Source of the DNA: Escherichia coli | GTDB taxonomy: Bacteria; Pseudomonadota; Gammaproteobacteria; Enterobacterales; Enterobacteriaceae | Direction: 5' to 3' (one strand) | Length of the DNA stretch: 64,000 bases | Assembly: GCF_036507355.1 (NCBI RefSeq) | Contig: NZ_AP027877.1 | Shown: one piece after another, positions 18,990 to 19,052 of the stretch | How the letters are laid out: each line of letters opens with the position of its first letter | How positions within the stretch are numbered: the stretch's first letter is position 1 | Program-made: the position numbers and the translations under genes | The notes under the pieces: model-generated | What the model saw: only the letters and a program-made list of their open reading frames with translations | What the model was told of the DNA's origin: nothing | Database searches by the model: none

Positions 18990-19052
18990 TTACGGGCAGA
19001 TAAGCATCAGGTAGCAGTACAGCATCACACAGAGCGCATATGCCTCAGTCAT
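18990..19052 (-). CDS. possible 20-aa hydrophobic Cys-rich peptide (MTEAYALCVMLYCYLMLICP)
   Basis: ATG overlaps the TGA of the upstream 62-aa ORF (ATGA); hand translation from the sequence; followed by the terminator; could be chance. Confidence 0.25.
   Translation of the reverse strand: MTEAYALCVMLYCYLMLICP

Follow-up and report, generated by a model that had tools for sequence, protein, structure and literature searches.

A putative 20-residue hydrophobic micropeptide gene at the end of a predicted transcription unit in an Escherichia coli island

A 20-codon open reading frame (ORF) on the minus strand of the 64,000-nucleotide stretch of Escherichia coli DNA analysed here (the window) very probably represents a genuine but unannotated gene and, with it, a new family of small proteins, as judged from the conservation of the frame and the pattern of substitutions among ten versions of it. 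Our preferred reading, which we hold with moderate confidence, is that this mini-ORF encodes a trans-acting hydrophobic micropeptide and would close a three-cistron unit that begins with a 130-aa gene and continues with a 62-aa gene. A short hydrophobic protein made from an overlapping last cistron is of a known kind; the peptide family itself is new. To our knowledge, 20-codon genes fall under the cut-off of every annotation pipeline, and the mini-ORF is a case in which comparative evidence alone reveals such a gene, despite the narrow family to which it belongs. Should it be translated, a new micropeptide family would be added to the small int/AlpA/primase islands, whose last four genes lack known function. 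With its one start codon, one Pro-stop and one hairpin, the mini-ORF module also offers a handle on module expression.

Results

Position and start signals of the mini-ORF

The mini-ORF occupies positions 19052..18990 of the minus strand, from an ATG at 19052..19050 to a TAA at 18992..18990, and its 20 sense codons specify the peptide MTEAYALCVMLYCYLMLICP. The start shares bases with the TGA stop of the 62-aa gene (19051..19049) in the arrangement ATGA. A Shine-Dalgarno (SD)-like GGGGA (19057..19061, minus strand) is located 4 nt 5′ of the start, where the 62-aa gene still has its final codons. The short ORF of the original prediction, with its ATG overlapping the upstream TGA, is thus borne out and can be assigned to the minus strand, which had not been given. 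The calculated SD:anti-SD energy amounts to −5.7 kcal/mol in the window and ranges from −3.8 to −11.3 kcal/mol in the other versions, on a par with the values for the neighbouring genes (−5.9 and −6.4 kcal/mol).

None of the RefSeq records examined carries an annotation between the 62-aa gene and the 93-aa gene that follows the mini-ORF. The peptide has no match in Pfam or NCBIfam (E ≤ 10) or in PADLOC, a collection of 15 billion proteins contains none of the exact peptides, and tblastn searches with the peptides against phages and plasmids gave no match. The 3 kb around the mini-ORF contain 56 ORFs with 20 aa or more, so that, taken as a single sequence, it is no better than chance; a signal above chance comes only from the comparison with homologues. 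The earlier caution that an ORF this short can arise by chance therefore applies to the lone sequence and loses its force once the homologues are compared.

Conservation across ten versions

The comparison set comprises ten distinct peptides from about six independent diverged lineages, most copies being identical. In addition to MTEAYALCVMLYCYLMLICP in the window, these are MTEAYALCLMTYCYLMVYRP (locus L005), MMEAYALCLMTYCYLMVYRP (L032), MMEAYALCLMTYCYFMVWRP (L052), TEWYALCVMAYCYFMVWRP with a GTG start (L050), MIGTFALCALCFCWLMALRP (L004), MIETFAFCALCFCWLMALRP (L014 and L015, the latter from Salmonella), MNEAYAACVVLYCWLMAVRP (L018), MTEAYAACALLYCYLIVIRP (L048) and the 18-aa peptide MDIAAALLAYCWLMTVRP (L059). 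Diverged versions have 14–28 of the 63 nt changed. The start is nevertheless kept in all ten, as ATG everywhere except for the GTG of L050, and it overlaps the upstream stop as ATGA or, in L018 and L059, as TGATG. An open frame without internal stop, an SD-like G-run and a Pro codon followed directly by TAA or TGA are likewise found in every version. The length is exactly 20 codons in nine of the ten, and L059 and L060 carry an in-frame deletion of 6 nt. The five other frames, those of the opposite strand included, are interrupted by stops in some versions.

The substitutions are of the coding type. Between diverged pairs, pN/pS is 0.19–0.59, and at least 16, 14 and 28 changes are needed at the first, second and third codon positions, respectively. 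When substitutions are placed at random, the ORF is retained with P = 0.04–0.16 per lineage, which gives a joint value of about 2 × 10−6 over five lineages under a crude null, the lineages being only partly independent. The similarity of the peptides by BLOSUM62 exceeds the null in each lineage (P = 0.00005–0.004, counting stop-free simulations only), and the replacements are conservative (Y/F, Y/W, L/F, M/I and V/A/L). Conserved residues fall into the blocks Y5-A6-x-C8, Y12-C13-[YW]14-[LF]15-[MI]16 and R19-P20, with E3, Y5, A6 and C8 conserved in nine versions. Pro is the last sense codon in all ten and is preceded by Arg in nine, the window ending in Cys-Pro. Conservation is strongest in the C-terminal half, Y-C-[YW]-[LF]-[MI]-x-x-R-P, and the 18-aa version, which is without Cys8, retains this half unchanged. 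Cysteines are present at positions 8 and 13, in the window also at position 19, and are never adjacent.

Conservation in homologous islands had been proposed as a check on the original prediction, which a non-conserved frame was to refute. The outcome favours a gene: frame, start and stop, and apart from the in-frame deletion also the length, are retained in ten diverged versions together with the statistics of a coding sequence, so that this ground for refutation falls away.

Broken copies occur as well. A 1-nt deletion in codon 6 leaves an ORF of 8 codons. Of 37 complete E. coli genomes, 6 carry this deletion (read directly in two of them and inferred from the match length in four), as does one metagenome. 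The contig L057 has lost the stop by a change of TAA to CAA. One strain carries C13G, and in two further strains Cys13 and Pro20 are affected by synonymous changes. The frameshift and stop-loss lineages are recent exceptions. The stop-loss and C13G copies imply that the mini-ORF is dispensable for retention of the island.

Promoter and upstream genes

The 62-aa gene (19049..19237, minus strand) is annotated as a hypothetical protein. Its product has conserved ends, a variable middle and two FN..FY.G motifs, and the family comprises only 22 clusters at 90% identity. The first cistron is the 130-aa gene (19234..19626, minus strand; ORF open from 19638), which overlaps the 62-aa gene by another ATGA. 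For this first protein, a profile search with the 134-aa form returned essentially one family or cluster among 1.84 billion representatives. The AlphaFold2 model of the 134-aa protein (pLDDT 68) contains a helix-helix-hairpin segment with weak resemblance to MerR/Xis winged helix-turn-helix (HTH) domains, none of it significant; from the model, a MerR/Xis-like winged HTH is possible for the product of the 130-aa gene.

The promoter region (19643..19682, minus strand) displays an extended −10 element, TGGTATAAT (19671..19663), between copies of GCTAGTAC at 19682..19675 and 19652..19645, and from this arrangement the promoter looks operator-controlled. The extended −10 is the only promoter of the unit, about 40 nt 5′ of the 130-aa gene and about 600 nt 5′ of the mini-ORF; a consensus promoter scan missed it because of its poor −35. 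TGnTATAAT is found at the matching position in seven other versions. With a conserved promoter at the 5′ side and a terminator at the 3′ side, the 130- and 62-aa genes together with the mini-ORF can be read as one unit. TAGTAC-type repeats recur at the promoter position in diverged islands.

Spacer, terminator and RNA structure

An intrinsic terminator at 18947..18970 (minus strand) consists of GCCGCC-GAAA-GGCGGT (18970..18955) followed by TTCTTTT. The hairpin has 6 bp, a GNRA loop and a calculated energy of −11.1 kcal/mol, begins 19 nt 3′ of the mini-ORF stop and is the sole terminator-like site on the minus strand in the area. Six pairs and this energy make the terminator moderate rather than strong. 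Of the earlier statement that the ORF is immediately followed by a strong terminator, the terminator itself stands; immediate adjacency gives way to a gap of 19 nt, and the strength was overestimated.

The spacer between stop and hairpin (18971..18989, minus strand) is C-rich and G-poor, its last 9 nt, CTGCCAAGC, are conserved, and its length is insufficient for calling a rut site. In the other versions the spacer measures 16–31 nt and contains indels, and the mini-ORF of those versions is free of frame-breaking indels. The terminator of L018 shows a compensatory change of C-G to U-A together with a loop change from GAAA to GUAA. Consensus folding supports the terminator only, and covariation is seen nowhere else.

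Several RNA- or DNA-level candidates were evaluated at this locus. The region has no match in Rfam at E ≤ 1, and the 151-nt region folds with no excess stability over shuffled sequences (z = +0.58); a structured RNA element was ruled out on these two results and on the restriction of covariation to the terminator. A duplex search of the 5′ arm of the terminator against the upstream RNA in seven versions yielded pairings at differing positions and with energies equal to those of shuffles, and an antiterminator was rejected. A cos site was considered as the hairpin region holds CGGCGGCG, yet the island has no lambda-like cosN above chance. On the plus strand near 18950–19100, a consensus scan, which a weak promoter could escape, found no promoter-like site.

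The downstream gene and joint inheritance

The 93-aa gene (WP_000935764.1; 18648..18929, minus strand) starts about 18 nt past the T-run of the terminator and is preceded by a GGAG SD at 18939..18936. The AlphaFold2 model of its product (pLDDT 74) shows a three-helix domain plus a C-terminal hairpin and has no significant fold match. The products of the neighbouring genes have no convincing match in Pfam, NCBIfam, PHROGs or PADLOC.

The 93-aa gene always co-occurs with the mini-ORF and the hairpin, and as the three are always present or absent together, they form one inherited block. A gene pair of 134 and 68 aa is shared between the islands and NZ_CP055032.1 (L066), a 13.3-kb plasmid of Shigella flexneri, where, as in four similar metagenome contigs (L044–L047), it stands beside ParA and Arc genes. 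In this plasmid version (L066 and L044–L047) the mini-ORF, the island hairpin and the 93-aa gene are all absent, and the 68-aa gene abuts a different hairpin. The peptide is thus not required by the 62-aa protein as such. The island family may have an extrachromosomal relative in the L066-type element. This element is small and circular and encodes an integrase, toprim, VirE-family, ParA, Arc and DUF5681 proteins and a 'phage baseplate protein'. Two metagenome contigs (L016 and L017) combine a 62-aa gene frameshifted to 50 aa with intact copies of the mini-ORF, the hairpin and the 93-aa gene.

The island and its distribution

E. coli chromosomes that carry an island of about 8 kb between yicC and dinD match the region at 99.7% identity. 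The genes of this island lie in one orientation and encode a tyrosine integrase, a hypothetical protein, an AlpA-type HTH protein (PF05930, E = 4 × 10−10), toprim and DUF927 proteins and four hypothetical proteins. An imperfect 41-nt direct repeat (18463..18503 and 26598–26638, spacing 8,135) marks the ends of the island, and the two copies are probably attachment sites. They are 73% identical, with the 3′ 16 nt nearly identical, and delimit 8.1 kb.

Among 5,426 complete E. coli genomes, 37–39 contain the island. A species-level genome scan found two loci only, in the representatives of Shimwellia and Kluyvera; further carriers are Atlantibacter, Salmonella and metagenome contigs. Viral scans for wider relatives returned one contig, and a metagenome scan with the terminator returned ten related loci plus unrelated chance matches. 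A 121-nt block is identical in most island copies, even where the flanking 62-aa gene differs.

Discussion

A trans-acting peptide as the preferred reading

On the basis of the start signals described above, we infer that ribosomes ending the 62-aa gene at its TGA would re-initiate on the overlapping ATG, aided by the GGGGA, and thereby produce the 20-residue peptide. Its layout would be an acidic N-terminus (Glu3), an uncharged core of 14–16 residues made up of aromatic residues, Cys, Leu, Met and Trp, and a C-terminal Arg-Pro. We propose that the peptide acts in trans, most likely as one short helix that lies within the inner membrane or on its surface, and that the conserved blocks may contact a membrane protein or other copies of the peptide. 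Co-inheritance with the hairpin and the 93-aa gene suggests that its role is probably linked to that of the 93-aa gene.

Membrane association, although the most likely location, is the weakest step of this explanation, because hydropathy of the whole peptide is low, the core is short, and conservation is organized in blocks without helical periodicity. The core reaches 1.45–2.48 in all versions and the whole peptide only 0.66–1.69; for a membrane span the core is short and Tyr-rich. A conserved helical face was tried and rejected, a Fourier test of the per-position entropy at 100 degrees giving p = 0.41. KdpF, AcrZ, SgrT and MgtS are small inner-membrane proteins that bind larger membrane proteins. 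With such small enterobacterial inner-membrane proteins, the putative peptide shares a single hydrophobic segment, omission from annotation and a position often found among them, that of a last or overlapping cistron (PMC12648545). They comprise, however, 29–49 aa with a full span, whereas the mini-ORF has 20 codons, a core of 14–16 residues and a distribution confined to a narrow mobile-element family.

The suggestion that a small hydrophobic peptide is made here as a toxin or a leader has fared unevenly: conservation argues for a real peptide, and the two functions are hypothetical. In size, hydrophobicity and location on accessory DNA, the product resembles IbsC and similarly short type I toxins from E. 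coli (18–19 aa), and at 20 aa it is well within the limit of 60 aa for hydrophobic type I toxin peptides. IbsC, with 19 aa, also serves as a precedent for a transmembrane helix formed by so short a peptide (PMC12648545). In contrast to the Ibs/Sib systems, the start of the mini-ORF overlaps the stop of the 62-aa gene, as in a coupled last cistron, and there is no free-standing transcript with a promoter and a regulated 5′ UTR of its own. Neither the consensus scan nor Rfam revealed an antisense or adjacent RNA antitoxin with a promoter at the locus. There is also no sequence similarity to Ibs, the mini-ORF peptide being rich in Tyr, Cys and Met and ending in Arg-Pro. As its own promoter, an antisense promoter and a known RNA are all lacking at the locus, the architecture of a type I toxin is absent and the toxin idea is not upheld.

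Action in cis at the Pro-stop

The rival that survives best, which we nevertheless regard as unlikely, is that of a cis-acting arrest or leader peptide: a ribosome pausing at the Pro-stop would tune passage through the hairpin into the 93-aa gene, in a TnaC-like manner. The invariant final Pro and the nearly invariant Arg-Pro fit this proposal, and TnaC also ends in Arg-Pro. So do the preferential conservation of the C-terminal half, which survives intact in the 18-aa version without Cys8, the strict association of ORF, hairpin and 93-aa gene, all three of which the plasmid version lacks, and the fact that past the hairpin there is no space for a promoter of the 93-aa gene itself. According to published accounts, TnaC, which has 24 aa and is the leader peptide of tnaCAB, arrests the ribosome at Pro24-stop (PMC8450073, PMC8429421), with Pro24 likewise the last sense codon before the stop (PMC8450073). 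The likeness extends to a short ORF 5′ of a gene on the same strand, a conserved aromatic residue upstream of the final Pro, conserved residues within the last ~12 positions (12–16) and a downstream termination signal.

The arrangement of the two loci is, however, different. TnaC has no sequence homology or family similarity to the mini-ORF peptide and is encoded by a first cistron with its own start, whereas the mini-ORF is coupled to an upstream gene. The stalled tna ribosome, in the same accounts, blocks Rho beside the stop (PMC8450073, PMC8429421); here an intrinsic hairpin is placed 16–31 nt away, with no alternative structure. The best partners of the 5′ arm are scattered and at shuffle level, no antiterminator is conserved, and the region folds no better than shuffles. 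By our estimate of the ribosome footprint, a ribosome on the stop codon extends too short a distance to reach 16–31 nt, so the stem, at its variable separation, is outside its reach and the termination signal is not one that it could mask. Conservation of the N-terminal residues E3, Y5, A6 and C8 in nine versions also speaks against this rival, and the Cys codons are not in tandem. A leader of the classical attenuator form is not supported: there are neither mutually exclusive hairpins nor a regulatory run of codons for a sensed amino acid, and the conserved antiterminator, overall structure and constant stop-to-hairpin distance of such a system are missing too.

A further-reaching possibility, which we also consider improbable, is that the mini-ORF specifies a new nascent-chain sensor or effector of a phage-satellite-like island. 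It would work either by an arrest at the Pro-stop that gates hairpin read-through into the last gene of the island, or as a membrane-active peptide directed at a phage, be it a helper or a competitor, with lysis timing, DNA entry or membrane potential as conceivable targets. If this were true, few functional gene products of mobile elements would be as short, and the peptide would belong to a family without described relatives.

Translation without a functional peptide, chance and frameshifting

There is only a slim chance that the act of translation matters and the peptide does not, with ribosomes shielding the mRNA from Rho or RNases, or fixing the distance to the hairpin. Conservation of start, overlap and stop would be expected of such a role, as would the position of the mini-ORF, last in the unit and just ahead of the terminator. 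It would leave unexplained, however, the conservation at the level of amino acids, with conservative replacements beyond those of random placement and pN/pS below 1, and a length set at 20 codons next to a spacer that varies.

Slimmer still is the chance that the ORF is fortuitous, or that conservation acts on the DNA or RNA with the open frame as a by-product. ORFs of similar size are common in the surroundings, annotation pipelines call no gene at the locus, the frameshift, stop-loss and C13G variants exist, and the 121 nt that are 100% identical in most copies despite differing 62-aa genes resemble a recombined block. Against this, versions with 14–28 changed nucleotides retain every requirement of a gene. 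The alternatives at the nucleic acid level are also poorly served by the absence of an Rfam match and of excess structure, by an island without a lambda-type cosN and by interrupted frames on the opposite strand.

Least probable by our estimate is a −1 frameshift that would append the mini-ORF to the 62-aa protein as the C-terminal extension of an 82-aa tail-anchored protein: relative to the 62-aa gene, every version has the mini-ORF in the −1 frame, with ATGA and TGATG overlaps alike, and a G-run followed by AAA (G GGG AAA) is located just upstream, but there is no canonical X XXY YYZ heptamer, the run is not conserved (GGG GGA GGC in L018, GGG AGA GGC in L059), the start codon is retained in ten of ten versions even through a change from ATG to GTG, and common versions such as L016 have a stop in the −1 frame 7 codons 5′ of the ATG.

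The host island

The trans-acting peptide that we favour would belong to a phage-satellite-like island. Similarity to Gram-negative phage-inducible chromosomal islands (PICIs) such as EcCICFT073 is seen in the integrase, alpA and a primase/helicase pair, in the direct repeats and in the small size, and int, alpA and primase are found in one orientation with putative att repeats. Typical PICIs are larger than this island of about 8.1 kb. The island also differs from PICIs in having no lambda-like cosN, RppA homologue, capsid gene or terminase gene. A search for a PICI module for packaging hijack gave cosN at chance level, no relative in the PDB for the 134-aa and 93-aa proteins and no PHROG structural match; the PDB is expected to hold an RppA structure.

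Additional features were observed in and next to the island. At one flank, dinD (17438–18273, minus strand) has two 1-nt deletions relative to strain MARGA_3 that split its ORF, and is a frameshifted pseudogene here. At 24113–24150, the junction of a 283-aa ORF and alpA, a 19-nt unit is present as a perfect tandem duplicate (two copies of CAAAGTAGGTCTTCACTTT), which may serve as a binding site or have arisen by recent duplication. Upstream of the unit, a hypothetical protein of 139/151 aa (20042–20497, minus strand) has the signal-peptide-like start KSIAIITLTLLATATVHAGA, so that an exported protein is probably also among the products of the island.
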